From Candidatus Woesearchaeota archaeon (GTDB taxonomy: Archaea > Nanobdellota > Nanobdellia > SCGC-AAA011-G17 > PNOQ01): a stretch of DNA of 64,000 nt. The notes under the pieces were generated by a model that saw nothing but the letters and a program-made list of their open reading frames with translations, did not search any database and was not told the origin of the DNA. Shown here piece by piece: positions 9,124 to 56,904 of the stretch. How positions within the stretch are numbered: the first letter of the stretch is position 1; the number at the start of each line of letters is the position of its first letter. The stretch is from positions 11,292 through 75,291 of the forward strand of contig CAZRTL010000002.1 in assembly GCA_964603065.1 (NCBI GenBank), in the 5' to 3' direction. The translations under genes and the position numbers were made by a program.

Positions 9124-9238
9124 CGCCGGGACTGGGATTTGAACCCAGACGCCCCGAAGGGCCTGGATTAGCAATTTCACCTTGAGAAACAATTATGTTA
9201 ACTCAATCCAGTGCAATACCAGATTATGCGATCCCGGC
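9124..9238 (-). tRNA. tRNA-Ser(GCT) with 32-nt non-canonical intron (9176..9207, position 30/31)
   Basis: Splicing restores CTGGA-TTGCTAA-TCCAG; long variable arm; G73; BHB-like central helix CACT:GGTG with GG|A and AA|A bulges, intron stem TTGAG:CTCAA. Confidence 0.9.
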
Positions 9239-21362: not shown

Positions 21363-21658
21363 AACTTAAACAACTTCTTCTCAAAATCAACTATCTTCCC
21401 ATCAACAACAAAAACACCTTCTTCTTTTAACATTTTAATTTTATTTTTAGGACCAGAAGCAAAACCTCCAATCCCTCCATTAGAAGAAACAACTCTATGA
21501 CAGGGGACTTCAGGAGCATAAGGATTTTTATTCATAGCATTTCCAATGGCCCGATAAGCCTTACAATTCAAAGCATGAGCCAATTCTTTGTATGTGCTAA
21601 CTCTGCCTTTAGGAATTCTTCTACATACTTCATAAACTCTTTCATTAAAGCTTTTCAT
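21359..21658 (-). CDS. ogt: Methylated-DNA-protein-cysteine methyltransferase (MGMT), single-domain
   Basis: IPKGRVSTYKELA, RAIGNAM, VPCHRVV. Confidence 0.92.
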   Translation of the reverse strand: MKSFNERVYEVCRRIPKGRVSTYKELAHALNCKAYRAIGNAMNKNPYAPEVPCHRVVSSNGGIGGFASGPKNKIKMLKEEGVFVVDGKIVDFEKKLFKF

Positions 21659-23528
21659 TTTCAAAATTAAGATTTATTCTTCCAGTATTTCTCCTCTGTT
21701 CAGGGTGTTTGATATCATGAAATAGCCTAGCATAATGAGAAACAACTCTTTTTAGTTCATCTCTGTTAACCAAATGATCAATATATCCATTTTCATACAA
21801 CATATCTGTACAAACAACATTTCTATCAACTTCTAAGCCTGCTCCAGTAACTACTCTTGGACCTGCAAACTCAGCTAAACTCCCTCTTTCTCCAATCATG
21901 ATATCTCCCTGTGTAACATAACTAGCGTAAGCCCCTCCAGTAGTAGGTTCTGCAATAATAGAAATATAAGGAATACCCTTACTCTTCAAATCTAACAAAG
22001 CCATGTTAATTTTTGCCATTTGTGCTAATGACATAGGACCTTCCTGCATTCTAGCTCCTCCAGAAGAACAAACTGAAACCAAAGGTAACTCTTCTTTTAT
22101 TGCAACGTCCACTATTCTTTTGAACTTCTCGCCATAAATGGAGCCAAAACTTCCACTAATAAAATCAATATCTGAAATGGCAAAAGCAACACCTTTACCG
22201 TTTATTTGACCAGTTCCAATAACCAAACTATCCTTAGAAAATCCTCTTTTCTCTCCTTTTTCTAATTTTACTCTATAAGAATCTGTCAAATATCTTTCAT
22301 TCCCTACAAGGTTTTCCAAATTTAAATTATGCTCAACCTCTTCAAAAGTACCTTCATCACATAACTTAGCTAAATGTTCTTCTGCTCCAAGTAATTCGCC
22401 TTTCCCACATTCTGGACAAGCATGAAAATTATTTTCATAATCATCAAAAGATTTCATACCGCAGCCCCCAGCAACCCTAAATTTACCTTCCTGTTCATTC
22501 CATTCTTTCTCACATAAAACAACTTGTCGGTCTTTTATATTTCTGTTTTCTAAATGTTCTTTCCTTAATTGAGATATAAAACTATCACCTGTTTCAACAT
22601 CTATAACTTTTCCAGATACATCCTCTTTTCTTTTCCTCTTAAATTTACCTTTAACAATTCTCTTAAGAGTCTGCAAGGAATTTTCAAAGCTACCATAATT
22701 TAGAACTTTATCTCTTCTCTCTTTTACTAATCTATTCACAGTTTTATTTGTTATTCTTTTTTCATCTGTTTTCTTATCAACATTTACCCATTCATTCAAA
22801 GTTTCAACCAAGGTTTCCCTAATCATATTTATTGTATTTTCATAATTAGTATGTGCACCCTCATCTGGTTCAGAAAGAATTTCATCAACCATTCCGACTT
22901 CCATTAAATGTTCGGCTCCAGGTTGTAATACTTCTAAAGCACTCTCCACTAAATTTTCTAAATTTTCTCCTTCTTGTAATCTTTTATTAAAAATAATTCT
23001 TGCACAACTCTCTGGAGCAATTACAGAGTATAAAGCATTCTCAAACATAAAGGATTTATCCGCAACTTGCATAGCCAAGGCCCCTCCGCTACCCCCCTCA
23101 CCAATAACATAAGAAACAGTAGGAGTTTTTACTTCACAAAATCTTCTTATACAATCTGAAATATTAAAAGATTGACCTTCTATCTCAGATTTCATACTAG
23201 CATCTCCGCCAAATGTATCAATAAACGAAATAATTGGAATTTTATGCTCCTCGGCCTCTTTTAATATATCAAGAACATAATTATAACCCTCAGCAGTTAT
23301 CATTCCTGTTGCCTTACTATCTTTTCCTTCTCTTCTCTTCTCTTGGCCCAAAATTATGCACCTAATTCCGTCCATATAACCTTTAACCGCAACTAATGAA
23401 GGATCGGGAGATTCATAGTATATCGGGTTATCAACAATATTTTCAATAATATCCGAACTTCTTATTCTTGAAGGATGTCTTGTTAACTCATATCTCTCTT
23501 TTAAAGACTTAAGCTCTTTTTCTCCCAT
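21645..23528 (-). CDS. Bacterial-type acetyl-CoA carboxylase carboxyltransferase, AccA-AccD fusion
   Basis: N-half AccA (FIDTFG, GEGGSGGALA, YSVIAPES, GAH); C-half AccD (CPECG, GSFGSIYGEK, SSGGARMQEG, PTTGG, FAGPRV); start moved to MGEKEL. Confidence 0.9.
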   Translation of the reverse strand: MGEKELKSLKERYELTRHPSRIRSSDIIENIVDNPIYYESPDPSLVAVKGYMDGIRCIILGQEKRREGKDSKATGMITAEGYNYVLDILKEAEEHKIPIISFIDTFGGDASMKSEIEGQSFNISDCIRRFCEVKTPTVSYVIGEGGSGGALAMQVADKSFMFENALYSVIAPESCARIIFNKRLQEGENLENLVESALEVLQPGAEHLMEVGMVDEILSEPDEGAHTNYENTINMIRETLVETLNEWVNVDKKTDEKRITNKTVNRLVKERRDKVLNYGSFENSLQTLKRIVKGKFKRKRKEDVSGKVIDVETGDSFISQLRKEHLENRNIKDRQVVLCEKEWNEQEGKFRVAGGCGMKSFDDYENNFHACPECGKGELLGAEEHLAKLCDEGTFEEVEHNLNLENLVGNERYLTDSYRVKLEKGEKRGFSKDSLVIGTGQINGKGVAFAISDIDFISGSFGSIYGEKFKRIVDVAIKEELPLVSVCSSGGARMQEGPMSLAQMAKINMALLDLKSKGIPYISIIAEPTTGGAYASYVTQGDIMIGERGSLAEFAGPRVVTGAGLEVDRNVVCTDMLYENGYIDHLVNRDELKRVVSHYARLFHDIKHPEQRRNTGRINLNFENEKL

Positions 23529-23580: not shown

Positions 23581-23838
23581 ATGAAATACAATTTAGAAAT
23601 AGATGAATTAGCTGAGAAAATAAATAAAGACAAAGCTAAATTAGTATGCTTACAATTACCAGATGGATTAAAACCAGAAGCTACAAAGATAACCAAACAA
23701 CTAGAAAAATTGACTGAAGCAAAAATAGTTATCTGGTTAGGCTCATGCTGGGGAGCTTGCGATATTCCAACAAGTTTAAAAGATTTAAATTTCGACCTAG
23801 TAATACAGTATGGTCATTCTGCATGGCCATTTTACTAA
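23581..23838 (+). CDS. dph2: Stand-alone N-terminal domain of Dph2 (diphthamide synthesis), 85 aa
   Basis: VCLQLPDGLK, SCWGACD, IQYGHS; ends cleanly at TAA. Confidence 0.82.
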   Translation: MKYNLEIDELAEKINKDKAKLVCLQLPDGLKPEATKITKQLEKLTEAKIVIWLGSCWGACDIPTSLKDLNFDLVIQYGHSAWPFY

Positions 23839-23839
23839 A

Positions 23840-25468
23840 ATGAAAATAACAAAAAATGAGGTGATAGTAGCTATTCTTATAGTTCTAGTTTTAGCTTTAG
23901 TAATTTACTTCACCCCAAAACCACAATTAGCACCACCTATAGAATGTGGTAAGTGTACAGAATGGGTAGATCAAGAATGTGGAGCACATCTATGTGGAGA
24001 GTTAGAAATGTTCCAGACAAGAGAGTGTTTTATAGAGACAGATATAGAAGAAGTTGATATAAATGATAAAGATCAACCACTGAAAAGTCCACCGATCCAA
24101 TTTAGTCCAGGACCTTCTTGTGAAAAAAGATGTGTTCCTATACCAGAAATATGTAACACGCCGCCAGAAATAATTCTATTATCCCCACAAGATCAAGAAT
24201 CCAATGCCCCCGTAACTCAATCACTTTCATGGCAAGGTTCTGATACAAATAACCAAGATATAACTTATGATATTTACCTAGGTACAAATTCAACTCCAAC
24301 AATAATAGTTTCCCAAAACCAATCAGAAACAACATACACTCCAACAATCGATTTAGAGTATTTAACAACATATTATTGGAAAATCGTCGTAAAAGATGGA
24401 TATAATGAAACCTCTAGCAATACATGGCAGTTTACAACACAAAGTGTCCCAAATGTTCCACCAGACCAACCTTCTAATCCTCAGCCAGAAAATAATACTG
24501 AAAATATTTTATTAACTACTAATTTATCTTGGACAGCTTCAGACCAAGATGGGGATATCTTGCTTTATGATATTTACCTAGGTACAAATTCCACTCCAAC
24601 AATAATAGTTTCCCAAAACCAATCAGAAACAACATACACTCCAACAATCGATTTAGAGTATTTAACAACATATTATTGGAAAATCGTCGTAAAAGATTCC
24701 GAGTATCAAACATCCGGACCAATCTGGCAATTTACAACAGAACAGCAACCACAGCAACCTCAACAAAATGACGAAGAAGAAAGCCCCTCATCACCAATAG
24801 AATGTACTGGAAATGTATTGACCTGTTTAGGAGATTATTTAATGATGTGTAAAAGTGGACAGTGGGAAGCACTAGAAAATTGTGAGTATTCATGTGAAAA
24901 CGATAGGTGTCTTGAACCAGAAAAAGAACCCTTGTTTGATATTAAGGTATTTTTAGATGACGAGTCAAATGAAGTATTTGTAGAAGAAAAAGTAAAAGCG
25001 AATATAGTTTTATATAATTTCGGAACACTAAGACCAGTTGATGTTTTTTTAGAATGTTCCTTAGAGGATATGGAAAAAAATAAACTGGATTTGTTCACCG
25101 AAACTTTAGCTGTAGATTTACAAACTTCAATCAACAGAGAGTTACAATTTCCTCAAGGCACGGCACCAGGAACATATGTTATTAATTGTTATTTGACTTA
25201 TCCGGGTCAAGAAACAATAACTTCTTCAGAATTAGTCCAGTTATTACCAAGAGTTGAGCCTCATGAAGAAAAGCCAATGCCAATTATTCCAATAAATATA
25301 TTAATTTATAGTGCAGCAATACTAGTAATAATTACGCTAATAGTTATATTTATAAAGAAAATAAGGGAAACAAGAAAAGGAGGAAAAATTGGAAATCGAA
25401 AAAATAGAACTACCGAAACAGCTCATGGAAAACATAAGAAAAGTAGTGGAAGACACAAAAATGTTTGA
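23840..25468 (+). CDS. Surface protein with Cys-rich segments, two Fn3-like repeats and two TM anchors
   Basis: N- and C-terminal TM; YDIYLG...YYWKIVVKD repeats; start moved to MKITKN. Confidence 0.75.
   Translation: MKITKNEVIVAILIVLVLALVIYFTPKPQLAPPIECGKCTEWVDQECGAHLCGELEMFQTRECFIETDIEEVDINDKDQPLKSPPIQFSPGPSCEKRCVPIPEICNTPPEIILLSPQDQESNAPVTQSLSWQGSDTNNQDITYDIYLGTNSTPTIIVSQNQSETTYTPTIDLEYLTTYYWKIVVKDGYNETSSNTWQFTTQSVPNVPPDQPSNPQPENNTENILLTTNLSWTASDQDGDILLYDIYLGTNSTPTIIVSQNQSETTYTPTIDLEYLTTYYWKIVVKDSEYQTSGPIWQFTTEQQPQQPQQNDEEESPSSPIECTGNVLTCLGDYLMMCKSGQWEALENCEYSCENDRCLEPEKEPLFDIKVFLDDESNEVFVEEKVKANIVLYNFGTLRPVDVFLECSLEDMEKNKLDLFTETLAVDLQTSINRELQFPQGTAPGTYVINCYLTYPGQETITSSELVQLLPRVEPHEEKPMPIIPINILIYSAAILVIITLIVIFIKKIRETRKGGKIGNRKNRTTETAHGKHKKSSGRHKNV
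24265..24697 (+). repeat. 133-bp intragenic direct repeat (24265..24397 and 24565..24697)
   Basis: 132/133 identical, offset 300 bp; sole difference (24292 A vs 24592 C) is synonymous. Confidence 0.93.
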
Positions 25469-28158: not shown

Positions 28159-28781
28159 AAGACACCTTAGTAAAATATTGGAAAAGAAGCTATAATTTCG
28201 ATAGAAAAATGATGCAAGCTTTTAAGGATATTCCAAGAGAAAAATTCGTTCTCAAAAAACATAAAAATGAAGCCTATGCGGATATGGCCCTCCCAATATT
28301 AATGGGGCAAACTATTTCTCAACCAACAACAGTAATGATTATGCTAAACGCTTTAGAAGTAAAAAGAGGAGAACATATTTTGGAAATTGGAACTGGTTCT
28401 GGTTACCAAACCGCTTTATTATCAAGATTAGTCGGCCCAAAAGGAAAAGTAACTAGTCTAGAAATCCAACCGGAATTGATAGATTATGCCAAAAAGAATT
28501 TAAGAAAAATAAAGCTAGATAAGAACGTAAAGATAATTAGAACTGATGGTTCCAATGGTCATGAGAAACTCTCTCCTTATGACAAAATCATAGTTACCGC
28601 AGCATCCCCAAAATTAAATCATGCATTATTAGATCAGGTAAAAAGAGAAGGAATTATGGTCGTTCCAGTTGGACACCTTTATGAACAAAAATTATTAAAA
28701 ATAACTAGGAGCAGGGAACTCAGAATTGAAAATCTCGGTGAATTTTTATTTGTTCCCTTACGTGGAGAGCGTGGTTATTAA
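28155..28781 (+). CDS. pcm: Protein-L-isoaspartate O-methyltransferase
   Basis: [41 protein letters not shown]. Confidence 0.96.
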
Positions 28782-29617
28782 ACAATAGAATCAATAACTT
28801 TCCGCAACTTACTAACATTTAATTTTTTCTTAAACAGTGGCACTTTAGAATCTAAATTCTCTTCAAAAGTTTTTTTCTTATTAACATAAAATATCCCTAA
28901 AGGATATTTCTTAGTTTCAAGAGCTTTCTTAAAAGCCTTTTCTCTATTTGTTATATCATGCCCTTTCAAATAATAACTATTTTTTTTAAACCAATCAAAA
29001 GTATTCAATTTATTAAAAACTGGACAAGGTTGAAACACATCAATCAAAGCATATCCTTTATGGTTTATTGCCTTCTTCAAAATTTCTTTACTCTCTTTAA
29101 TATCTCCAGCATTAATTCTAGCTACAAAAGAAGCATCTAAAGCAATAGCAACAGATAAAGGGTTAAACGGCTCCATAACAACCCCAGAAATTTGAACAGG
29201 AGTTTTCATTCCTTTCAAGGAAGTAGGAGAAGCTTGCCCTTTGGTTAAACCATAAATAAGATTATTATGAACTAAATTAACAATATTAGGGTTTCTTCTA
29301 ATAGTATGTATAAAATGATTTCCTCCCTCCCCATAAATATCTCCATCACCTGAAGTTACAACTACAGTCAAATTAGTGTTACTAACTTTTATTCCGGTTG
29401 CAGGACTTAAAGCTCTTCCATGTAGCCCATTAAAAACATTTGTCTTCATATAATGGGGAGTTTTGGCAGCTTGCCCAATTCCAGAAACTAAAACTAAATT
29501 TTCCGGTCTTATTTTTAAATCGTAGATAGATTCTTTAACGATTTTCAAAATATTAAAATTACCACAGCCAGGGCACCAAGCCATATCAATATTTCCCATT
29601 TCTAAATGTTTTCTCAT
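28778..29617 (-). CDS. 2-oxoacid:ferredoxin oxidoreductase beta subunit
   Basis: [35 protein letters not shown]; substrate not assignable. Confidence 0.95.
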
Positions 29618-31293
29618 ATAACATCACCTAATTTCTTAGTCAATTCTTCAACCGAGAAAGGCAGACCGGAATATTTCAAAACATTAACAACATTTCTACC
29701 CGATTCCAATTTCAACAATTTACCAAACTGTCCAGTTGCATTATTCTCCACAACAATTATTTTCTTTGCCTTCTTCAAATATTCTTTAGTTTTATTATGT
29801 AAGGGCCAAACCTGTTTAAAATGTAAAAAAGACACACCTTTCTTATTCAATTCCTCTAAACTCTCTTTAACGACTCCTTTTGTGCTCCCCCAAGAAACAA
29901 CTAATGTTTTGTATTTTTCTTTTCCGATTAGTTCTGGCCCAATTTCATTTTTAATTGGGACTAATTTTTTCAATCTCTTCTCAACCATCCTATTTCTGAT
30001 ATTATGGTCTTCCGTAATATGCCCCTCTTCATCATGTTCATCGCTATCAACAGAAACTAAACCTTTTCCAAAAGAAGGAATTCCTCTGGGAGAAAAACCA
30101 GAATTTACTAATTTATATCTTTTATAATCTTTAGAAGTTTTAACAAAATAATGTTTAATCTTTTCTTTACTTACATTTAATTTAGGAATATTATTAAAAG
30201 AATCCACCAAAAACTGATCTGTCAAAATAATTACAGGAACTTGGTATTTATCTGCCAAATTAAAAGCCCTTTGAGTCAAATAAAAAGCTTCCTTAGCATC
30301 GCCAGGGGCCAAAATAACTCTTGGATACTCACCATGTCCACCATATAAAGCAAGTTCTAAATCTCCCTGTTCAGTTCTAGTTGGTAAACCTGTTGCCGGT
30401 CCAGGTCTTTGAGCAATATGTATGACAAACGGACTCTCTAACATTCCAGCCAAACTAAATCCCTCAGTCATCAAATCAAAACCCCCGCCAGAAGTTGTTA
30501 CAATGGATCTTCCTCCAGTATACCAAACTCCCAAAGCCATATTTATGGCAGCTATTTCATCTTCAGTCTGTTCTACTAAAATATCAAAATCTTTACTATA
30601 CTTGGCCAAATTATTCAAAACTCCAGTCGAAGGACTCATTGGATATGAAGAAATAAAATTACATCCTCCAGCTACTGCCCCCAAAGCAATGGCTTCACTA
30701 CCGTCGATATATAATTCTTTTTTGACCTTATTGTCTTTCTCTAATTTTATTTTAATGTGATGCGACAAACTCTTTCCATATCCATAGCCTTTTTTTGCTG
30801 CTAAAATATTACTCTTAAAATCTTTTCCTCTGCTTCCAAAATAATTTTTAATATAGTTACTAATTACACCAAACTTAATTCCAAATAATCCTAAAATGGC
30901 TCCCACAGCAACAGTATTTGAATATAATTCATTACCCAACTCTTTAGCTATTTTTGATAATGGAATATCGACGATTCCTTTTTCTAACTTTTCTTTTTCT
31001 CCAATAATTATGGTATTTTCATTAACTCTATGTTTATATCTGTTTAAAGAATCTAAATTCAAAGGTAAAAATATATCCATCCGATCCAAATAAGCCGAAA
31101 TTCTTTTCGAACAAATTCTTACTTGAGTAGAATTAACCCCTCCTCTAACTCTAGACATATATTCCTTCATTGCAAAAACATGATATCCCTCTAATTTCAA
31201 AATATGTGTTAACATGTGTTGAATCGTCTGAATACCTTGACCAGCAGCTCCTGCCAGAACAATAGAAATATCATCCAAAAACTCTCTTTTCAT
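29614..31293 (-). CDS. 2-oxoacid:ferredoxin oxidoreductase alpha(+gamma) subunit
   Basis: [38 protein letters not shown]. Confidence 0.95.
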
Positions 31294-43088: not shown

Positions 43089-44003
43089 TTAAAGTTTACG
43101 TTTTAATTTTCTCTTAAATAAATGATTTTTTAATCTACACCACTTTTCAGTATTTTTTTCAAATAAAATTAGTGATTTTTTCAAATCTCTCACTCTCATA
43201 GAAATTCTATGTCTCCCATATTTATCAGATTTTTTATTAATGTGAGGATCAAATCCTAATTCAACAAGCATCGAATATACTTCTTTGATAAATCTTCCAT
43301 TTTTTAACATCAAAGAAACATGGCCATTATCTCTAGCAACTGAACCATCAAACATAAAAATTCCTCTCAAAAAAGCAATTTTTATATTTTTACTTGAATT
43401 TTTTATATATTCGGGAATAATAAAAATCTCTGTTTTACGGCCAACCGGCATTTTTAAAATTTTGCTAAAAAATTCAAAAATAACTCTATTGCTAATATAA
43501 ACCTCATAATGATTTTTTCTATCCTTTGGTGTTATTCCATATTCAAAGCAATGATTAAACCAATCACAAAAAGATTCTACTGCTCTCTGATATTCTTCTC
43601 TTAATACTAACTCATATCTAATGCAATCCCTATTATGTCTTTTTGAATTTCTTGTTCTCAAATGACCATCGGCCAAATGTGCTCCAATAATTTTTGCCAA
43701 CCTTACATCTAGTTTTTTAGGGAATTTAATTAATTTCATATCCCAATAACTCTCAAAATAATTTATATCGCTTGAAAAATCAATATTATATTTCTCTTTT
43801 AGTATCTTAAAAAATTTTAAAGGTATAGATCTTCTCCTATTCAACCATCTCCACAAAGTTCCTGGAATTATTTTCATATCTTTAGAAATATCTTTCTTTT
43901 TAAATGGAGATATTGCTTCTATTATTTTTTTATTAAATTCTTCATTAACTAAAACTTTAACGGTATTATCATCTGGACACATATCATAAATATTAAATTC
44001 CAT
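43089..44003 (-). CDS. Free-standing LAGLIDADG endonuclease-like protein with N-terminal HTH
   Basis: Two motifs IIGAHLADGH and FLRGIFMFDGS; HTH-like KKDISKDMKIIPGTLWRW. Confidence 0.85.
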   Translation of the reverse strand: MEFNIYDMCPDDNTVKVLVNEEFNKKIIEAISPFKKKDISKDMKIIPGTLWRWLNRRRSIPLKFFKILKEKYNIDFSSDINYFESYWDMKLIKFPKKLDVRLAKIIGAHLADGHLRTRNSKRHNRDCIRYELVLREEYQRAVESFCDWFNHCFEYGITPKDRKNHYEVYISNRVIFEFFSKILKMPVGRKTEIFIIPEYIKNSSKNIKIAFLRGIFMFDGSVARDNGHVSLMLKNGRFIKEVYSMLVELGFDPHINKKSDKYGRHRISMRVRDLKKSLILFEKNTEKWCRLKNHLFKRKLKRKL

Positions 44004-44977: not shown

Positions 44978-45427
44978 ACTAATACCTATTTTTCTAGCAT
45001 ACTCTTCGGACATTCTCAAATATTCCTTCATCTCATAAGTTGTGTAAATATCAATCCCCATTTTTTTTAATTGTTTTCTTCTACTTCGAGATACAGAGCC
45101 TGTGTGATGAATTGTGCAATCTTCTAAACTTCCGTACATATTGACTAGGACATCAGAAAGTTTTCTATTTGCCAAAACATGGGTTAATGTTCCCAAACCT
45201 TTTTTTCTTGCCCCAGATATATTCCTTAAAGGGTAGAAGTCAGTCCACAACACTGATTTTCTATTCATAAAAACACAAGCAGATGCATCCCCCATATCAT
45301 GATTTCCTAAAGAAAACTGAAAATAATATTTTTCCCTATTATAAAAACAATTATCTCTAAAAAGATTACCTCTCAAAAAAATTAATGGATTTTCCTGAAT
45401 TTCCTTTTCTAAATTTTTAAATTTCAT
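44948..45427 (-). CDS. Hypothetical protein with possible GNAT acetyl-CoA-binding motif
   Basis: ARKKGLGT resembles motif A; ATGA-coupled to ABC permease. Confidence 0.4.
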   Translation of the reverse strand: MKFKNLEKEIQENPLIFLRGNLFRDNCFYNREKYYFQFSLGNHDMGDASACVFMNRKSVLWTDFYPLRNISGARKKGLGTLTHVLANRKLSDVLVNMYGSLEDCTIHHTGSVSRSRRKQLKKMGIDIYTTYEMKEYLRMSEEYARKIGISLAVLPKSKI

Positions 45428-46635
45428 TCATACCTCAAGCTTTCAACGGGCCTTAATTCAGAAGCCCTCTTAGCAGGGAAATAACCTGCAATAACTCCAA
45501 CCAAAGTTGCAAATAGCAAACATCCAAAAATTAAATACCATGGAAATATGGGTTGCAAGGCCGCAAAACCAGATTCAGCAGATATCTTACCTCCAACTGA
45601 GGATGTAATATAACCGAATATAACTCCAACTAAACCTCCAATAAAGCCCAAAACACCAGATTCAAATAAAAATATATTCATAATACTCGAATTTCTAGCA
45701 CCAATACTTTTCATAACTCCAATTTCTTTAGTTCTCTCTAAAACTGCAGTGTACATTGTATTCATAATATTCACAGTAGCAATAATCAAAGAAATAAAAG
45801 CTATTAAAAACAAAATTCCATTTAAAACATTAATTACATTCGAAAATGTAGCCAAGGCATCCTCAAAAGTTTGAACAAAAAAATCTTCCTTTCCCTCTTC
45901 TTGTCCCTTAAACTTTCTTAGCTTGTCTTCAACCTTATCGGCCAAGTCACCAGAATCAACTCCACTAGCTGAACTTAGCATAATATACCCATATTTATTT
46001 TCTTTTTCAGGAAATAACTCTTCAAAAGTTTCTTCAATAACATAAAGATTAGAATCATCTCCGGGATTTCCAATCTCCTCATAGAAACCAACTATCTTGA
46101 AAGTTTCGTCTTTAATTTCAACTTTATTCCCCAATGCTAAACCCTTGCTAAAAATTTTACCATCTATTTGATAATTATAACCCAAAACAATTTTCCTAGA
46201 ATCTCCCTCTTTTAAATTTCTACCTTCCTCTATCTCAGTTGCAAAACCTTCTAAAATAAAATCAATATCTTCCGGATCAAAAGCAGTCAAAAAAGCATAT
46301 TTAGTTTCTCCTTTAGATTTAATATCTGAAATTCCCATATACATTCCAGCAACTTCATCAACCCCATTTATTTTTTTAACAAAATCTATGTCTTCTCCAG
46401 TTAAAAAAAAGTTCGGGTCTGTTCCAGGCGCTCCAGTACTTTTTGCTTGAATAAAGATTTTATCAACTCCTGCCTCTTCAGCTATAGTATCAATATAATT
46501 TTGAACTCCTAGACCAAAAGAAATAATTGCAAAAATAGCAGTAATACCAATCAAAATAGACAAAATGCTCAAACTACTTCTGAGTCTTCTATTCTTCAAA
46601 CTTTGTAGTGAATATTTTATCTCATCTATTTTCAT
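45424..46635 (-). CDS. ABC transporter permease (MacB/FtsX family)
   Basis: RRLRSSLSILSILIG, NIMNTMYTAVLERTKEIGVMKSIGA. Confidence 0.95.
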   Translation of the reverse strand: MKIDEIKYSLQSLKNRRLRSSLSILSILIGITAIFAIISFGLGVQNYIDTIAEEAGVDKIFIQAKSTGAPGTDPNFFLTGEDIDFVKKINGVDEVAGMYMGISDIKSKGETKYAFLTAFDPEDIDFILEGFATEIEEGRNLKEGDSRKIVLGYNYQIDGKIFSKGLALGNKVEIKDETFKIVGFYEEIGNPGDDSNLYVIEETFEELFPEKENKYGYIMLSSASGVDSGDLADKVEDKLRKFKGQEEGKEDFFVQTFEDALATFSNVINVLNGILFLIAFISLIIATVNIMNTMYTAVLERTKEIGVMKSIGARNSSIMNIFLFESGVLGFIGGLVGVIFGYITSSVGGKISAESGFAALQPIFPWYLIFGCLLFATLVGVIAGYFPAKRASELRPVESLRYE

Positions 46636-47864
46636 TTTACACTCCTCAATGATTCAACGGGTTGTAATTTCGAAGCCTGAACAGCTGGCAACGTACCAAA
46701 TATAGTTCCCAAAATAAATGAAAACAACAAAGCCCCAATAATTAACTCTAACGAAACGCTAGCTTGAATTAAATCTCCACCGAGAGTCATACGGCCAACA
46801 AAAGCCAAACCATAAGCCATAATCAATCCTAAAATAACCCCAATCACACCTCCAACCAATCCTAAATATCCAGATTCAATAAAAAATAGTCCAAATATTG
46901 TTTTGTTCTTAGCTCCAATACTTTTCATAATTCCGATGTCTTTCTTCCTCTCCAAAACAGAGGTATACATCGTATTCATAATTCCAATTCCACCAACTAA
47001 TAATGAAATAACAGCAATAATTGTAACAAATAACTGAACTCCAAAAAGTATATCATTTAACTGATCTAAAGTTTGCTGAGGACTTTCAACAACAAAATCT
47101 TCTTCACCTAATTTTACTCTCCTTTCTTTACGAAGTAAGTTCTCAATATCTTCTTTAACCTTATCAATTTCGTTTACATCTTTAACTTTAACAGCAATAA
47201 CATCAACTTGATTATCTCTAGATCTCAACTCATCCAACATAATATCTTCATTAACAAAAACAGCATTGTCAAAAATAAAACTCCCTTTTTTCTCTAAAAT
47301 ACCAACTACTTCATATTTGTAGTCATTCAATAAAACTCTATCTCCAACATTTATTGCTTTTCCAAATCCAACTCCATCATCATAAAAATTAAAGCCTAAA
47401 ACTAATTTTCTCCCATCACCATCTTTCAACATTCTACCTTTAGCAGCTTTCAAATTAGCCATTTCTTCAAGAGATTTACGATCAGAACCGGAAGGGATTG
47501 ACATTGCCAAACCAATTCCCAATACATCATTAAACTCCAATGTACCACTCTCTAAATACCTATCTATAGCTACCTCAACCCCATTTATTTTTCCAATTTT
47601 ATCAGTTAATTCTGGATCTAAAGGAGTTACAACTGCACTTCCAGGGGGACCAGCAAAATCTAATCCTTCAGCTCTAACTGATAAAGTATCAGAACCTAAA
47701 AATCCGAATTGAGAAGTAATACCGACCCTCAATCCTTCACCTAAACCAATTAAAGAAACAACGGCGGCTATGCCTATGAATATTCCAATCATGGTTAACC
47801 ATGACCGCAATCTTCTATTCCTTAAATTTTTAATAGCAAAGGAGAGAGAATCTAGAAAATTCAT
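46632..47864 (-). CDS. ABC transporter permease (MacB/FtsX family), paralogue
   Basis: RRLRSWLTMIGIFIG, GIMNTMYTSVLERKKDIGIMKSIGA. Confidence 0.95.
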   Translation of the reverse strand: MNFLDSLSFAIKNLRNRRLRSWLTMIGIFIGIAAVVSLIGLGEGLRVGITSQFGFLGSDTLSVRAEGLDFAGPPGSAVVTPLDPELTDKIGKINGVEVAIDRYLESGTLEFNDVLGIGLAMSIPSGSDRKSLEEMANLKAAKGRMLKDGDGRKLVLGFNFYDDGVGFGKAINVGDRVLLNDYKYEVVGILEKKGSFIFDNAVFVNEDIMLDELRSRDNQVDVIAVKVKDVNEIDKVKEDIENLLRKERRVKLGEEDFVVESPQQTLDQLNDILFGVQLFVTIIAVISLLVGGIGIMNTMYTSVLERKKDIGIMKSIGAKNKTIFGLFFIESGYLGLVGGVIGVILGLIMAYGLAFVGRMTLGGDLIQASVSLELIIGALLFSFILGTIFGTLPAVQASKLQPVESLRSVK

Positions 47865-49033
47865 TCTTCTTCGATTCTTCTCTTTTTTCTTATTCTTCTA
47901 ATTACAAAAAATCCTACTACCACAATAAAAACTAATATTCCCCAAACTGCATTGTTATTATCATCAATTAAGCCCATTTCTTTGGCTTCCTTAGCAGTAT
48001 AACAAGTCATAGGAACACTAAACAAGTTTTTATATTCTACACTGGAATCATCTTCATACATAACATATAATTTTAAGTCAACATTTTCTTCGCCAACAAA
48101 AATTTCATATGTTAAAGTTTCGTAATCATCACTATCAACTTGACCAATGTAAAGTTTGTTTGTAGTTATTAGATTATATGTAATATCCTCATACAGATCA
48201 ACTTCCAAAAACTCTGCATCTCCCATTCCTTTATTGATTATTTTCAAATCAACTAAGTTTTTTTGGCCACAAATTAAATAATTTGTTTCAGGAATAATAT
48301 CTATTTCTGGAAGTGCTCCTACTCTAACACTAATGAAGGATGTTTTTTGATAATCTTTACCATTTTCATCTTCATATTCAATTCTAATAGGAATTTTGTA
48401 ATATCCAGATGAAGCTTCATCCAAAGCAACTATGCTAATACTGACTTCTTCCAAATCTCTTGCATCCAAACTTCCGAACTCTTTATAGCTAACTGAAGTA
48501 TATGGTGCTAAAGGCAACCCAAATAAATCCAATTCAACTTTAATATCTTCTAAATCAGTATCTCCATCGTTTTCCAAGATTATTTTCAATTCTGCCTTTT
48601 CACCTTTCTTCAAAACTTGTGGGTCTGAACTCACTGAAATAATTTGTAAACTTACTTCATTATCAATATCAATTAAAAAATCTTCAGTTATCCAATCATC
48701 AGTACCTTCTAATCTATATGCAAATCTGATTTCACTAGCCAATTCACTAGCATCGTCTTCTACATCTACTCTAAAAGTAACTTCTTCGTTATCATTTCCA
48801 CTAATTTCTAATGTTTGTAAACTTCCATGTTCTAAATAGAATGGATCTTCAACAAACAACTTTACTTCGTAAACTCCAGCGTTACCCATATTGTAAACCA
48901 TGAAGTCAACGAAAAATTTTTCACCCGGTTCAACCGGATTAGGATTAACATCCTCTAAATCTATGTTTAATTCAGCATTTACTGAAACTAAAGTTATCAT
49001 CAATGCTAACATTATTAATAATAGTTTTTTCAT
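47861..49033 (-). CDS. COG1361-type S-layer/Ig-like domain protein
   Basis: Signal peptide, PNPVEPGE, Ig-like repeats, C-terminal TM and RRIRKKRR. Confidence 0.8.
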   Translation of the reverse strand: MKKLLLIMLALMITLVSVNAELNIDLEDVNPNPVEPGEKFFVDFMVYNMGNAGVYEVKLFVEDPFYLEHGSLQTLEISGNDNEEVTFRVDVEDDASELASEIRFAYRLEGTDDWITEDFLIDIDNEVSLQIISVSSDPQVLKKGEKAELKIILENDGDTDLEDIKVELDLFGLPLAPYTSVSYKEFGSLDARDLEEVSISIVALDEASSGYYKIPIRIEYEDENGKDYQKTSFISVRVGALPEIDIIPETNYLICGQKNLVDLKIINKGMGDAEFLEVDLYEDITYNLITTNKLYIGQVDSDDYETLTYEIFVGEENVDLKLYVMYEDDSSVEYKNLFSVPMTCYTAKEAKEMGLIDDNNNAVWGILVFIVVVGFFVIRRIRKKRRIEEE

Positions 49034-49707
49034 TTTCTCCCTCCGTTGATTGCTATTTCACCATCTTTTATCATCACTTGTTTGTGAGCATGATTAGCTA
49101 CACTCATATCGTGTGTAACCATAATAATTGTTTTTCCTTGTTTATTCAAACTATTCAATAATTCCATAACTTTCTCGCCAGTTTTAGTATCCAAATTTCC
49201 AGTAGGTTCATCGGCCAAAATAACATCTGGATCATTTGCTAATGCTCTTGCAATAGCAACTCTCTGTTGTTCTCCACCAGACATTTCACTAGGTCTGTGT
49301 TTTAATCTATGTCCTAAATTAACGTACTCTAATAATTCCCTAGCTCTTTTTAATCTCTTATTCTTAGAAATTCCTTGAAAATTCATTGCCAAAGAAACAT
49401 TTTCTAAAGCAGATAAAGTTTGAATTAAATTAAATTGTTGAAAAATAAAACCTATTTTTTTACCTCTTAAAACAGCTAAATCGGATTCTGACATTTTAGC
49501 TATATCCTTATTCTCCAAATAAATTTCCCCTTTACTAGGAATATCTAAACATCCAACCATATTCATCATAGTACTTTTTCCAGAACCAGAAGGACCAATA
49601 ATAGCTACAAAATCACCAGTTTCTATCTTTAAATTAATATTTTTTAGAGCCTCAACTCTAGCATCTCCTCTACCATAGGTTTTAAAAACTTGATTCAAGG
49701 TTATCAT
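49030..49707 (-). CDS. ABC transporter ATP-binding protein (LolD/MacB type)
   Basis: GPSGSGKST, MSGGEQQRVAIARAL, LADEPTGNLD. Confidence 0.97.
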   Translation of the reverse strand: MITLNQVFKTYGRGDARVEALKNINLKIETGDFVAIIGPSGSGKSTMMNMVGCLDIPSKGEIYLENKDIAKMSESDLAVLRGKKIGFIFQQFNLIQTLSALENVSLAMNFQGISKNKRLKRARELLEYVNLGHRLKHRPSEMSGGEQQRVAIARALANDPDVILADEPTGNLDTKTGEKVMELLNSLNKQGKTIIMVTHDMSVANHAHKQVMIKDGEIAINGGRK

Positions 49708-49885: not shown

Positions 49886-51463
49886 CTACCAAACAACCCC
49901 TCCCATATCCTCAGGGATTGGTTCTTCTTCTATTTTACACGCACTATATTCCCACCTATCTTGATCAAAAGTAATATCACATACTTCACAATATTTGGCA
50001 GGATTATGTTCCCCATCTAAATAACATTCATTTGAAATAAAACAAGAGCTATCATCAATAATATAATCACAACTCCCACCATTACAATACTCGAGAGTAC
50101 ATATAAAACCATCATCCACGCAATCATTATCTAAATAACATTCTGGATCTCCAGAACTAATTCCCCTAGAAACATAATCTAAATCAACATAAAAAAAATC
50201 TTTGACACTAAATCCTTCCGGGTTATCAATTAAAACACCTGAAGTAGGCCTATAACCTCTCCAGTGAGAATCCATTTCTGCCGCGTAATTTATGTGCTCA
50301 TTACCCCAAATATTGCAATATTGATCATCATTTATTCCACAGCAATTTCCACAAACACCATCCCTATAATTTCTCTCCGCGTTTAGAAAATCTCCAGTAA
50401 CTGTGTCTATAGCTACCGGGTTAACAGCAAAGAAAAAACTGTTTGGACTTCTATGCCCGCTTTCAGTTGTTGGAAATAAATCTTCATACATTGGTTCATC
50501 AAAAAGATGCCCTTCTTTATGCGAAGTCATATAAGTGGCCTCACTGATAAATAATCTTGTTTTGCCTCCAATCAAAGGGTGAGTAGCAAGAATAGCAACA
50601 TTACACAATCTTCCAGTATTATGTAAATCGCTAGGTTCTGTTACAGTTCCAAAATGATTTTTCATAGCTCCCGTAGCATAAGCGGTATGTCCTTTCATTA
50701 AATGCAAATTGATAAGGTGATTTGCCTCTGAAACAACTGTAGGAAGGTATTGTGTTTCAGCAGTTGAACATTCGTAATCTGAAAAAATAATTGGTGAACT
50801 ATAATCTAGGATGTGATCATTCGAATCAACAATTTCAACCCCTGTGTTATAAGATTCCCATATTACTCTCCACCAAGAAACCGAGTGAGTATGTATCTCT
50901 CTAGAAACATCATATATTTTTATATTATTTGAACTAAGACCCATATCATTTATCAAAGAATCAACTACAACATAAGGCATTTTCGGATCTTGGTTGGCGT
51001 AGAAATAATAACTGTTCATATTCATTTTTATAGCTATTTTATCATTTCCGGGGGCCTCTCCAAGTAATTCAACCCATGCATCAATAACATTATTGGTTTG
51101 AGTTAGTTCCATCAAACCTTCTCTAAAAGTTTTATTATATTCTTCCAAATCAGTATTATCCACAAAATGATTACCTTCACCATCTATATAATCCCAATTA
51201 TTCAAATCTGGGTTATAAATTCTAACGACTTTATTTTCTGGAATATTATCGGCTAAAGGGACATACAAATCCTTATCTTGAGAATATTTAACTGGCAGAA
51301 TATTTTCGAAAACTGGGTAATTAACTTTCAAGCCATATCCTTGTAAATTATCAAGAATTGTTATATTGTTACTCAAAACATTACCATATAAAAAACCTGC
51401 AAAAGCTAAAACAACAATAAAAATCATAAAATATTTTCTATGATACTTAACACCTCTTTGCAT
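49886..51463 (-). CDS. Secreted DUF362-type protein with Cys-rich C-terminus
   Basis: N-terminal TM; KIAIKMN, EANHLINLHLMKGH, AMKNHFG, AVNPVAIDT; CVDDGFICTLEYC repeat. Confidence 0.75.
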   Translation of the reverse strand: MQRGVKYHRKYFMIFIVVLAFAGFLYGNVLSNNITILDNLQGYGLKVNYPVFENILPVKYSQDKDLYVPLADNIPENKVVRIYNPDLNNWDYIDGEGNHFVDNTDLEEYNKTFREGLMELTQTNNVIDAWVELLGEAPGNDKIAIKMNMNSYYFYANQDPKMPYVVVDSLINDMGLSSNNIKIYDVSREIHTHSVSWWRVIWESYNTGVEIVDSNDHILDYSSPIIFSDYECSTAETQYLPTVVSEANHLINLHLMKGHTAYATGAMKNHFGTVTEPSDLHNTGRLCNVAILATHPLIGGKTRLFISEATYMTSHKEGHLFDEPMYEDLFPTTESGHRSPNSFFFAVNPVAIDTVTGDFLNAERNYRDGVCGNCCGINDDQYCNIWGNEHINYAAEMDSHWRGYRPTSGVLIDNPEGFSVKDFFYVDLDYVSRGISSGDPECYLDNDCVDDGFICTLEYCNGGSCDYIIDDSSCFISNECYLDGEHNPAKYCEVCDITFDQDRWEYSACKIEEEPIPEDMGGVVW

Positions 51464-51514
51464 ATTTAGATAAGGCTTTTGTTTAATATAAACTTTTCTA
51501 AAATTGGCCCATCA

Positions 51515-54500
51515 TCAAAATAAACCTTTAATGAAATTAATTAAAACATCCCACCAAAGAACTCCAGGAGGAGAATATACTCCTTCAGGAGCGACCCAAT
51601 AACCAACCCCCGGTATCAATTCTTGATCAGTAACATCAACGTAACTACCAGCAACATATTCCCATACAGTATATATCCCAACCCCGTAAATATCTGTAAT
51701 TAAACCTTGTCTCGTAACACCAACTAAATTCCAGTTATTTGCATCCAATAAATAATCATATCCCTCTGGCCCATAACCATTCAAAGTCACATTTCCTCCA
51801 AAAAGAGAATAAACAACATAACCTCTTCCCATTTCCAAAGCATTAATTTCATCCAATCCTCTTTGGTAATACAATAACCATTTCATTCCTATCAAATCAT
51901 AAGCTAAAATAGCCTGGGCATCCAATTGTTCTAGCGATGTGTTTGTTACATTAATCGGAACGCTAATAAAATTTAGGCCAGGATTCAAACTAATATCAAA
52001 GGAGACAGCACAATCTCCATCTTGATCATCAACAAAACCATCATTATCATTATCAAAAGTGTCAAAACAATCACTCTCATTAATATAATAAGAACACTGC
52101 GTTAAATTATCATTACAATACTGTCCACTTAAAGAACAATCAGTATATATAGAACTGTCAAATATATTTTCAGTACATGAAGGAATTCCACTATCATAAC
52201 AACTAAAAACATGGTCTAAAATATAAGGATCTACTAGGACATCTTCTTGACATTCAGGTTGAAGGGTATCTGTAGAATTATATTGAGAACAATCTTCAGT
52301 TTGAGAAGAGTTCAAATAAATATCACAACTTGTAACATCACATAAATAATTATTGGTAAGAACATTTTCCCCAACACAAGATAAAGTGCTATTTGACCAG
52401 CCATCACTACATTCAGCAGTACAACTATCCGCATAACAAGAATATGTACAAGTACCGGCAGGAACACAAGTTGAAACACCACCATAATCATTTGATTTAG
52501 GACCACTATCTCCTTCGCATCCTAAGCACCAATCACACAAAGGGTTAGGGCTACATTCACCCTCCAATAAACCAGTACAATCACTAGCATAAACGTCAAC
52601 ACTATCAGTTTGATCAATTCCAGATTGATAAGAACTTGTTTCATCAATGCCACAAGTAGCTATTCTGGTACCTGCACCAGCTCCAACATTACAAGTAAAC
52701 TGATAAGTTCCAAAACCATCATCTCCACCCCCAGTACAACTAGTACCATCCAAATCGGCAACTACGCTATTTAAGGAGTAGTCTTGAACATCAACAACAC
52801 ACTCAATATCAACATTTGAGTTCTCAACAACGGAACTTTGAACAACATTAGCGCTCAAAACACTAACTGAACAATCTCCATCTCCATGAGCCCCATCCTG
52901 ATTATCATAGTCACTTTCACTATCACAGTCATTATCGAAGGTATCCGAACAATCAAAGGCACCAGTTCCCTCATACATATCTCCACCATAGGTATTCCAA
53001 GACCAACTACCACCAGTCACATAACAAGTATACTCATTAACACCGCAATCTAAACTTCCAGTATTAATCTGACATTCATTAGCAGCATTACAGGTCAAAC
53101 TTTGCCCACAATTATAATTGCTAGCAATCACATCACAATGTGCCCCTCCAGTGTTATCGCAAGAGTATTGGTTTCCATACTGATTCAAGAAAACTGTGTT
53201 AACACTACACGTAAAATTATTATCATTACAAGTGTACTGGGCATCACAAGAAATAAAATCACTAACGTAATCATTACCACTACAATAATATTCCGTAATT
53301 GAATCTCCAATACAAGTATCGTCATACTGGACCGAAGGGCAACTTACATCTCCAAGGGTACATAAATCATTATCCATTACACTACCAAAAGTCAGATAAA
53401 TCTGGCCACCATCACTATCTACACAACTATCAGTACAAGATGGAGGAGTATTAAATTGACAATCAGAAATCTCATCACAAGTCTCCGCACCATTACACCA
53501 ATTACCATCATCGCAAATAGTATCATCAGGTAAATTATTACAAGAATCTGTAGTTTCATTACAACTATCAACAGTACATGAGACTGAGTCAACACAATCT
53601 GGAACATTCTGAACTTGGCAATCTAATGTTGCACTACAATAATCTTCTCCATTACACCATAAACCATCATCACATAAACCATCATTTGTTATGTGTAAAA
53701 TACTATCTGTACTTTCATCACAAGAATCATTCGTACATCCAACTCCATCATCTACTACTGGTGGGATTCCTACTTGACAACCAGAAAACCCCCCACAAGT
53801 TTCCGGTCCATCACAAAATAAACCATTATCACACAACAAATCACCTTCATCATCAACTAAAAGACTACAATCATTATCATAACCGTCACACATTTCAATA
53901 TTTCCAGGGTAACAATCTGCTCCACATTGTAAAGGATCATCATCACAATCCGCAGGGCCACAATCTCCTCCATCTACATTGAAACCGTCACCATCATCAT
54001 CAGTACAGCCCAAAACAAAATTTAATACTAACTCCGGAGTCTCTAGATTATTTGCCCACTCACTAACATAAACATTAAAATAATGGTTAGCCATAATAAC
54101 AAAACCATAATCTAAACCATACTGATCAATTAAAGGTTTTATATCAAATTCTTTCCAGCCTAAAGAATTATTTGTAGAGTAAGATACTCCCTCTGCCAAA
54201 TCAAAAGCAGTATTTATGTCTCCACCAATTTCATCCCAACTATTAGCTCCAGTGCCGGAATAATCATACTCATTCCAAGTTGCTCCACTAGGACCATCCT
54301 GATTTCCAATTCCTGTTCCTTCAGTCCAATACTTATTCAAGGGATATATTGTAACAATGGAAGGATCCCCTCCGTCCCAAAAATTATTAATTCTTAATAA
54401 AGCACTCTGCAAAGTTTGACCAGCATAAGGAGCTAAGTTCCATTTCATTAGGATAGAAGTAGAGCTGCTCATGTCTAATCTCCCTTTTGCTCCCCAATTA

Positions 54501-56869: not shown

Positions 56870-56904
56870 ATAATCCATACGACAACCATAAATTATAAAT
56901 CTTT

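Follow-up and report, generated by a model that had tools for sequence, protein, structure and literature searches.

The carboxyltransferase (CT) of acetyl-CoA carboxylase (ACC) and its relatives have been described in several arrangements. In bacteria, separate AccA (alpha) and AccD (beta) subunits form an alpha2beta2 enzyme (E. coli 2F9Y, S. aureus 2F9I and Chloroflexus 9M70), in which the first knuckle of the AccD zinc ribbon reads C-x2-C. The same two subunit types are joined in a single chain, beta half first, in the 'AccDA' fusions of Actinomycetota, Clostridia and others (~560-650 amino acids, aa), most of which match the canonical zinc-ribbon model Zn_ribbon_ACC (PF17848). The PccB-type CT, which is the type used by characterised archaeal acyl-CoA carboxylases, and the eukaryotic single-chain CT likewise carry two crotonase-fold halves in one chain (archaeal PccB, propionyl-CoA carboxylase beta, 9KKM); in both types the beta-like half precedes the alpha-like one and a zinc ribbon is absent, and PccB has ~510-550 aa with a full-length match to PF01039. 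The pair MdcD/MdcE of the biotin-independent malonate decarboxylase is a remote beta/alpha relative that shares the fold; it acts on a malonyl thioester and consists of separate subunits with neither zinc ribbon nor biotin. Here we describe a gene from a 64,000-nucleotide stretch of a Candidatus Woesearchaeota archaeon (contig CAZRTL010000002.1; the whole stretch is called the window below), the product of which contains an AccA-like half followed by an AccD-like half. Both halves resemble the bacterial subunits in sequence and fold, and the glycine motifs and the C-terminus of AccA are kept, with a predicted four-cysteine (Cys4) ribbon ahead of the beta core, whereas the protein differs from them in being one chain, alpha half first, with a basic linker of 53 aa and with a predicted first zinc knuckle of the form C-x16-C. 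By its sequence it is a clear member of a family of alpha-first fused CTs, which is widespread.

The gene lies on the minus strand and is translated without interruption from an ATG into a protein of 627 aa with the N-terminus MGEKELKSL (Table 1). The mechanical open reading frame (ORF) extends upstream as far as a TTG at 23696, but this codon was rejected as the start, because the N-termini of the homologues align to the ATG and the public gene call also has 627 aa. In the N-terminal part, Pfam ACCA (PF03255) matched aa 11-258 (5e-59) and three NCBIfam AccA models matched within aa 11-261 (1e-57 to 6e-51), among them AccA_sub (NF041504; aa 11-255, 1.2e-57). In the C-terminal part, the NCBIfam accD model TIGR00515 matched aa 333-598 (2.6e-59) and Pfam Carboxyl_trans aa 423-591. 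The domain order is therefore alpha then beta, and the single ORF with an AccA-like half followed by an AccD-like half, reported in a preliminary description made from the sequence alone, was found again by translation and by both model collections.

The AccA-like half had been described as complete. Alignment with canonical AccA proteins bore this out for its start, which is that of the short Firmicutes-type AccA (255 aa), and for its end, where the motif RR.KVLNYG.F corresponds to the natural AccA C-terminus (L..R..K....G.F), but not for the first ~55 residues of the long (proteobacterial) AccA, which are absent. At the end of this half, R271, V275, L276, Y278 and G279 were invariant in an alignment of 20 family sequences. 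The linker that follows contains 15 K/R and 8 D/E, and the mean pLDDT of the AlphaFold model was 51-57 over aa 281-310 and then rose to 75-78.

The predicted zinc ribbon at the head of the beta half has the sequence C339-EKEWNEQEGKFRVAGG-C356 ... C371-PE-C374, and all four cysteines were invariant in the family alignment, so that the expansion of the first CxxC of AccD to C-x16-C, already seen in the preliminary description, was confirmed. In a pairwise alignment the second cysteine of E. coli AccD pairs with C356, the position of its first cysteine is occupied by a residue other than cysteine, and C339 precedes the aligned part. The motifs GEGGSGGA, SGGARM.EG and PTTGGA.AS, together with the four cysteines, were invariant across the 20 family members, down to 39% identity, and in the last of these motifs the invariant residues are P528, T530, G531, G532 and A533. 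As in the E. coli and S. aureus CT structures, the glycine pairs in these motifs presumably form the two oxyanion holes. As judged from the sequence, all the motifs expected of an active CT are present and intact.

Table 1. Positions in the window of the fused carboxyltransferase gene, its parts and neighbouring genes
Feature	Position	Strand	Basis or remark
Single-chain AccA>AccD carboxyltransferase CDS, 627 aa, stop included	21645..23528	-	translation, Pfam, NCBIfam
AccA-like (alpha) half, aa 11-282	22683..23498	-	Pfam, NCBIfam, alignment to canonical AccA
GEGGSGGA motif of the alpha half, aa 143-150	23079..23102	-	AccA signature with glycine pair; invariant in family alignment
Linker, 53 aa (aa 283-335), basic, poorly conserved	22524..22682	-	alignment, AlphaFold pLDDT
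Predicted Cys4 zinc ribbon of the beta half, aa 339-374	22407..22514	-	C-x16-C ... C-x2-C
AccD-like (beta) catalytic core, aa 375-605	21714..22406	-	TIGR00515; E. coli AccD 2f9y_B at 6e-42
SGGARM motif of the beta half, aa 489-494	22047..22064	-	invariant; aligned to E. coli AccD 'sggarmqe'
PTTGGA motif of the beta half, aa 528-533	21930..21947	-	glycine pair of acyl-CoA site; aligned to E. coli 'dptmgg'
Methylated-DNA-protein-cysteine methyltransferase (MGMT), 99 aa	21359..21658	-	PCHRV site; downstream, co-directional
2-oxoacid:acceptor oxidoreductase, beta subunit	28778..29617	-	NCBIfam; acetyl-CoA source
2-oxoacid:acceptor oxidoreductase, alpha subunit	29614..31293	-	NCBIfam; acetyl-CoA source
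FabG-like short-chain dehydrogenase, 236 aa	31616..32326	-	NF009466 231.2 vs cut-off 222; Pfam
AMP-forming acetate-CoA ligase (AcsA), 636 aa	32361..34271	-	TIGR02188 793 bits vs cut-off 725

The relatives of solved structure that came closest by sequence were E. coli AccD (6e-42), S. aureus AccA (4e-33) and E. coli AccA (2e-30), with AccD/AccA of Chloroflexus also among the best, whereas PccB chains scored around 1e-24. The AlphaFold model (pLDDT 72.9, pTM 0.80) matched the alpha and beta chains of the S. aureus, E. coli and Chloroflexus CTs with TM-scores of 0.72-0.87 (target-normalised), and its best match as a whole chain was the multidomain ACC of S. oneidensis, 9KKM (TM 0.57, query-normalised). 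The match to PF01039 covered only profile positions 36-207 of 493, the mmdA model gave 97.9 bits against a cut-off of 998.8, and the MdcD/MdcE models TIGR03133 and TIGR03134 gave 52.8 against 278 and 62.1 against 237 bits. Order and scores rule out a beta-first AccDA, a PccB-type CT and an MdcD/E pair as the class of this protein, in agreement with the earlier assignment to the bacterial AccA/AccD type.

A bacterial-type gene of unusual order on an archaeal contig could arise by an assembly or frameshift error or by contamination of an archaeal bin with bacterial DNA, or it could be a decaying, functionless transferred gene; the DNA is solely metagenomic and the relatives outside the Woesearchaeota lineage are overwhelmingly bacterial. 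However, the identical 627-aa protein was found on six contigs, which come from three assemblies or more (a JGI contig of 262 kb, a further JGI sample and a Logan assembly), and orthologues with 82% (P0002) and 62% (P0003) identity occur in the same gene neighbourhood on other Woesearchaeota contigs, with PheRS, MGMT, a Dph fragment, TrmB and the 2-oxoacid oxidoreductase common to all three. The window encodes split RpoA'/A'', NusA-KH, ribosomal proteins S12 and S7, aEF2, aEF1A, archaeal-type PheRS alpha/beta, a diphthamide-synthesis fragment and a tRNA with a probable intron, and archaeal markers (RpoA'/A'', aEF2, aEF1A and PheRS) stand on both sides of the CT gene, as do archaeal core genes within the 262-kb contig. 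The G+C content of the gene (0.338, and 0.207 at third codon positions) matches that of the housekeeping genes of the host, the region of the junction bears residues that are invariant in the family, and the catalytic motifs are intact. Replicate contigs, synteny, conservation and host-like composition thus rule out an assembly artefact at the junction, which the preliminary description had allowed for, as well as contamination, a pseudogene and a recent transfer; the explanation as an artefact or passenger gene is effectively refuted, and we give it a negligible probability. The archaeal nature of the host is borne out by the core genes, and its assignment to Woesearchaeota by a relative, since the P0003 cluster contains a member named 'Candidatus Woesearchaeota archaeon' in NCBI.

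The distribution of the fusion was searched among 5.8 billion proteins, the counts being clusters. The Pfam pair of the window protein recurred in more than 100 clusters, which aligned at 56-62% identity over 98% of the query; every organism named for them belongs to Bacteroidota, whether to Bacteroidales, to Saprospiraceae or to unclassified members of the phylum. Below them, proteins of ~585 aa with 37-42% identity form a second tier, which belongs to Vulcanimicrobiota/Xenobiia, and the beta-first AccDA fusions are the next-best matches after the alpha-first group. The fusion had been proposed to be an independent event of this lineage, which does not hold, as the same collinear architecture is present in the Bacteroidota clusters and in other phyla. 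The window protein shares with the Bacteroidota/Woesearchaeota subfamily the collinear full-length similarity, the domain order, a C-x16-C knuckle ending in GGCG and the RR.KVLNYG motif at the start of the linker. A first zinc knuckle expanded to between C-x4 and C-x16 and usually ending in GGCG is common among the alpha-first fusions compared.

With HMMER, 1.84 billion representatives were also searched exhaustively, and the order was scored from each half separately for the best 150 clusters at 50% identity. Alpha-first order was found in 28 of these and beta-first order in 109, a count that includes PccB-like proteins. The alpha-first clusters include a Desulfatiglans protein that does match Pfam Zn_ribbon_ACC, and versions of ~730-850 aa from other metagenomes with C-terminal HEAT repeats (P0134, P0135, P0139, P0140, P0144 and P0154). 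They also include a 672-aa protein of a 'Nanoarchaeota archaeon' (P0133; L092 3894..5912), 37% identical to the window protein; its genomic surroundings, which include eRF1 and Alba, are archaeal. Its placement in a large DPANN clade was considered and rejected, as it is a lone divergent sequence with no close relatives in the 5.8 billion proteins.

In a sample of 80 GTDB loci from species genomes, obtained by a family-alignment scan dominated by the generic AccA motif, the adjacent accD/accA pairs were all beta-first, and so were the fusions with a single exception; the scan returned canonical accD-accA pairs and neither members of the alpha-first family nor the host genome. The beta-to-alpha order, which the preliminary description had given as the usual one, is still commoner than the alpha-first order. 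Fusions with AccA before AccD nevertheless proved to be common, while the literature searched, in which journal coverage was incomplete, yielded no account of a CT fused alpha-first, nor of an ACC in Woesearchaeota; neither is described in a Woesearchaeota review, in papers on biotin-carboxylase evolution and on assembly order or in a survey of archaeal fusions. In the databases the family is labelled 'hypothetical' or 'carboxyl transferase domain-containing'. The enzyme class is thus ordinary, and the alpha-first architecture is an undescribed but widespread variant of it.

The relationships within the family were examined with neighbour-joining trees (100 bootstraps, rooted on the Desulfatiglans protein), a method which on sequences this divergent is a rough guide. 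The four archaeal clusters formed a Woesearchaeota clade with a bootstrap value of 100, the Bacteroidota formed a clade excluding them (99), and both together were united at 100. The lone Nanoarchaeota sequence was the next branch out, with the Vulcanimicrobiota-type and other alpha-first clusters further out. This sharing between Woesearchaeota and Bacteroidota indicates an inter-domain transfer, and an old one, because the composition is ameliorated and synteny is kept across orthologues of just 62% identity. As the Woesearchaeota are sister to the Bacteroidota and not nested among them and the next sister is also a DPANN sequence, the transfer may have gone in either direction, even from archaea to bacteria. 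A bacterial origin followed by transfer into DPANN would be the economical reading, as the subunits of which the family is built are bacterial and most of its wider relatives are too. The alpha-first family would accordingly be mainly bacterial, with a marine Woesearchaeota subfamily that would have been shared with Bacteroidota through the old transfer and inherited vertically thereafter.

The MGMT gene downstream overlaps the stop region of the CT gene by 14 nucleotides. It also adjoins the CT gene in the 82% relative and is one gene further away in the 62% relative, where the two are separated by a NUDIX hydrolase gene (L002 9851..10198) that neither the window nor the 82% relative possesses. 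Genes for the 2-oxoacid oxidoreductase, the FabG-like short-chain dehydrogenase and the acetate-CoA ligase are situated 5-11 kb from the CT gene; the oxidoreductase genes lie close to it in both relatives, and in the 62% relative the ligase gene does so as well. Equivalog cut-offs were passed by the ligase and by the beta subunit of the oxidoreductase, whereas the alpha subunit of the latter and the dehydrogenase passed subfamily cut-offs only, and the dehydrogenase also clears the cut-off of a glucose 1-dehydrogenase subfamily, which leaves its specificity ambiguous. This context supports a location of the enzyme at the acetyl-CoA node.

On balance we lean towards a functional single-chain CT of the AccA/AccD type, belonging to a biotin-dependent ACC that supplies malonyl-CoA for fatty acids and to a family spread by an old transfer. 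We infer its activity, its partners and the physiological direction of its reaction from the data above. The most likely activity is the transfer of the carboxyl group from carboxybiotin to acetyl-CoA, because the CT motifs are invariant and the best relatives in sequence and fold are AccA and AccD. The AccA-like half would bind the (carboxy)biotin of the carrier protein, and the AccD-like half, with the Cys4 ribbon at its head, would bind acetyl- or malonyl-CoA. A homodimer of the fused chain would most likely reproduce the alpha2beta2 arrangement, the alpha-like and beta-like halves of two paired chains together making both active sites of the classical enzyme. The reaction would be carboxybiotinyl-BCCP + acetyl-CoA <-> biotinyl-BCCP + malonyl-CoA (BCCP, biotin carboxyl carrier protein), and BCCP and biotin carboxylase (BC) would be encoded elsewhere in the genome. 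Acetyl-CoA provided by the acetate-CoA ligase and the 2-oxoacid oxidoreductase, encoded 5-10 kb away, could thus be converted to malonyl-CoA for a bacterial-type fatty-acid pathway. The gene of another alpha-first CT, which follows one for a FabD-like acyltransferase protein, and the Fab genes published for Woesearchaeota (see below) are in favour of such a pathway.

Several observations weigh against a carboxylase devoted to fatty acids. DPANN archaea are generally without lipid synthesis. In the protein itself, the alpha half lacks the canonical HGDR segment of AccA and contains insertions of 8 aa and 12 aa, the zinc ribbon gave no match to the Pfam Zn_ribbon_ACC model, and the scores stay below the NCBIfam equivalog cut-offs (accD 200.9 against 317.45, accA 173.9 against 319.3; AccA_sub 195.3 against a cut-off of 300). 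Around the gene, a Pfam analysis of all unannotated ORFs of at least 110 aa and motif scans for the biotinyl-lysine site and for acyl carrier protein (ACP) detected no BCCP, BC, BirA, ACP or ketosynthase in the 64-kb window or in the 10 kb beyond its left end; the absence of BCCP and BC from the window, noted earlier, therefore stands and extends beyond it. Nor was a BC or BCCP gene adjacent to the alpha-first CT gene in any of 10 family contexts inspected. Moreover, an alpha-first CT gene is followed by genes for a thiolase and a 3-hydroxyacyl-CoA dehydrogenase at one locus (L095 8001..11915), and one of the HEAT-repeat versions divergently adjoins genes for an enoyl-CoA hydratase, a family III CoA-transferase and a thiolase. 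It is normal in many bacteria, however, for accA and accD to have no BC or BCCP genes next to them.

Because no partners were found and because two of the contexts are suggestive of acyl-CoA catabolism, a decarboxylating role or a different acyl-CoA substrate is viable. In the first case the CT would strip CO2 from malonyl-CoA or a related acyl-CoA with acetyl-CoA as the net product, and the CO2 could be passed to a biotin carrier, as in Na+-pump enzymes, or to free biotin, or be released without biotin as by MdcD-MdcE. Such a role would fit the absence of BC and BCCP within 74 kb, these two contexts, the hosts, which are fermentative anaerobes that produce and consume acetyl-CoA, and the matches, genuine though weak, to the gamma (5e-17) and beta (3e-14) families of malonate decarboxylase and to MdcD structures. 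However, the AccA/AccD models score three to four times above the Mdc models, which remain far below their cut-offs, and the GEGGSGGA motif on the biotin side and the AccD zinc ribbon are invariant. In addition, Pfam analysis of the ORFs found no membrane subunit of the OadB/MmdB type in the window, and a source of malonyl-CoA is not evident. We therefore regard a decarboxylase as unlikely.

In the second case the enzyme would carboxylate another acyl-CoA, or would supply extender units to a secondary-metabolite or other non-lipid route, and would not be a housekeeping ACC. The scores below the AccA and AccD equivalog cut-offs, the family-specific insertions and the missing HGDR segment are compatible with this, as is the existence of versions extended by HEAT repeats, which hint that an alpha-first CT may have its own mode of assembly or its own partner. 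The gene of one member (L093 5516..11815) stands in a polyketide-like cluster, behind genes for a FabD-like acyltransferase protein of 1099 aa, for a DHQ-synthase-like protein and for a protein of 4617 aa, and a beta-first fused CT occurs in two Bacteroidales assemblies that the GTDB scan returned (L026 and L040). On the other hand, the characterised proteins nearest to it in sequence and in fold are without exception CTs of ACC, and three Bacteroidota genomes have the alpha-first gene on its own amid housekeeping genes, a situation that is frequent for accA and accD as well. A different substrate or pathway appears distinctly unlikely, and transfer to acetyl-CoA is retained as the preferred activity.

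The gene had also been described as lying in a lineage that is not expected to have it. This expectation is weakened by published data, as Woesearchaeota metagenome-assembled genomes from oxygen-deficient zones carry FabG, FabI, FabZ, a CFA synthase and biotin transporters (PMC10936187); the same survey of oxygen-deficient-zone DPANN mentions no carboxylase.

Some further features of the window were recorded. An 85-aa ORF divergent from the CT gene (23581..23838, plus strand) has Diphthamide_syn (PF01866) as its sole match; its counterpart has 85 aa in the 62% relative and 107 aa in the 82% relative, and there are two readings for it, a conserved mini-protein and a split Dph2. Outside the window, ~14 kb past its left end, there is a Dph6-like gene (L094 14555..16015). 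Also adjoining the CT gene, a gene on the plus strand (23810..25468) encodes a 552-aa protein with hydrophobic stretches near both ends, Cys-rich regions and an exact internal repeat of 44 aa (YDIYLGTNSTPTIIVSQNQSETTYTPTIDLEYLTTYYWKIVVKD), suggestive of a recent internal duplication; its relatives vary in length between 441 and 542 aa. A tRNA of 115 nucleotides (9124..9238, minus strand), which was not reported by ARAGORN, matches the full 71-position Rfam model and probably contains an intron. A free-standing ORF of 304 aa with a LAGLIDADG domain (43089..44003, minus strand) is located directly downstream of the aEF2 gene. Two adjacent large proteins of 525 aa and 1787 aa (49886..56878, minus strand), in which DUF362 is the only recognisable domain, are adjoined by an ABC/MacB-FtsX transporter cluster (45424..49707).

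With over 100 clusters in Bacteroidota and 28 or more at the level of 50% identity, the alpha-first family is large; it is biochemically unexplored, and it provides, in a single natural chain, an enzyme which is both an antibiotic target and a bottleneck in metabolic engineering. It is possible, if doubtful, that marine Woesearchaeota make malonyl-CoA with this permuted CT and run a bacterial-type fatty-acid pathway, and that the alpha-first family represents a distinct form of ACC. DPANN archaea are thought to depend on their hosts for lipids. A conserved, vertically inherited CT would supply the missing first committed step beside the Fab genes reported in Woesearchaeota, and the question whether some DPANN make fatty acids becomes directly testable. 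The stable presence of the CT in Woesearchaeota is a modestly surprising addition to the evidence for bacterial-type lipid genes in DPANN, and, if the proposed function is true, it would mean that a lineage of ultra-small archaea has crossed the lipid divide and passes this on by inheritance.

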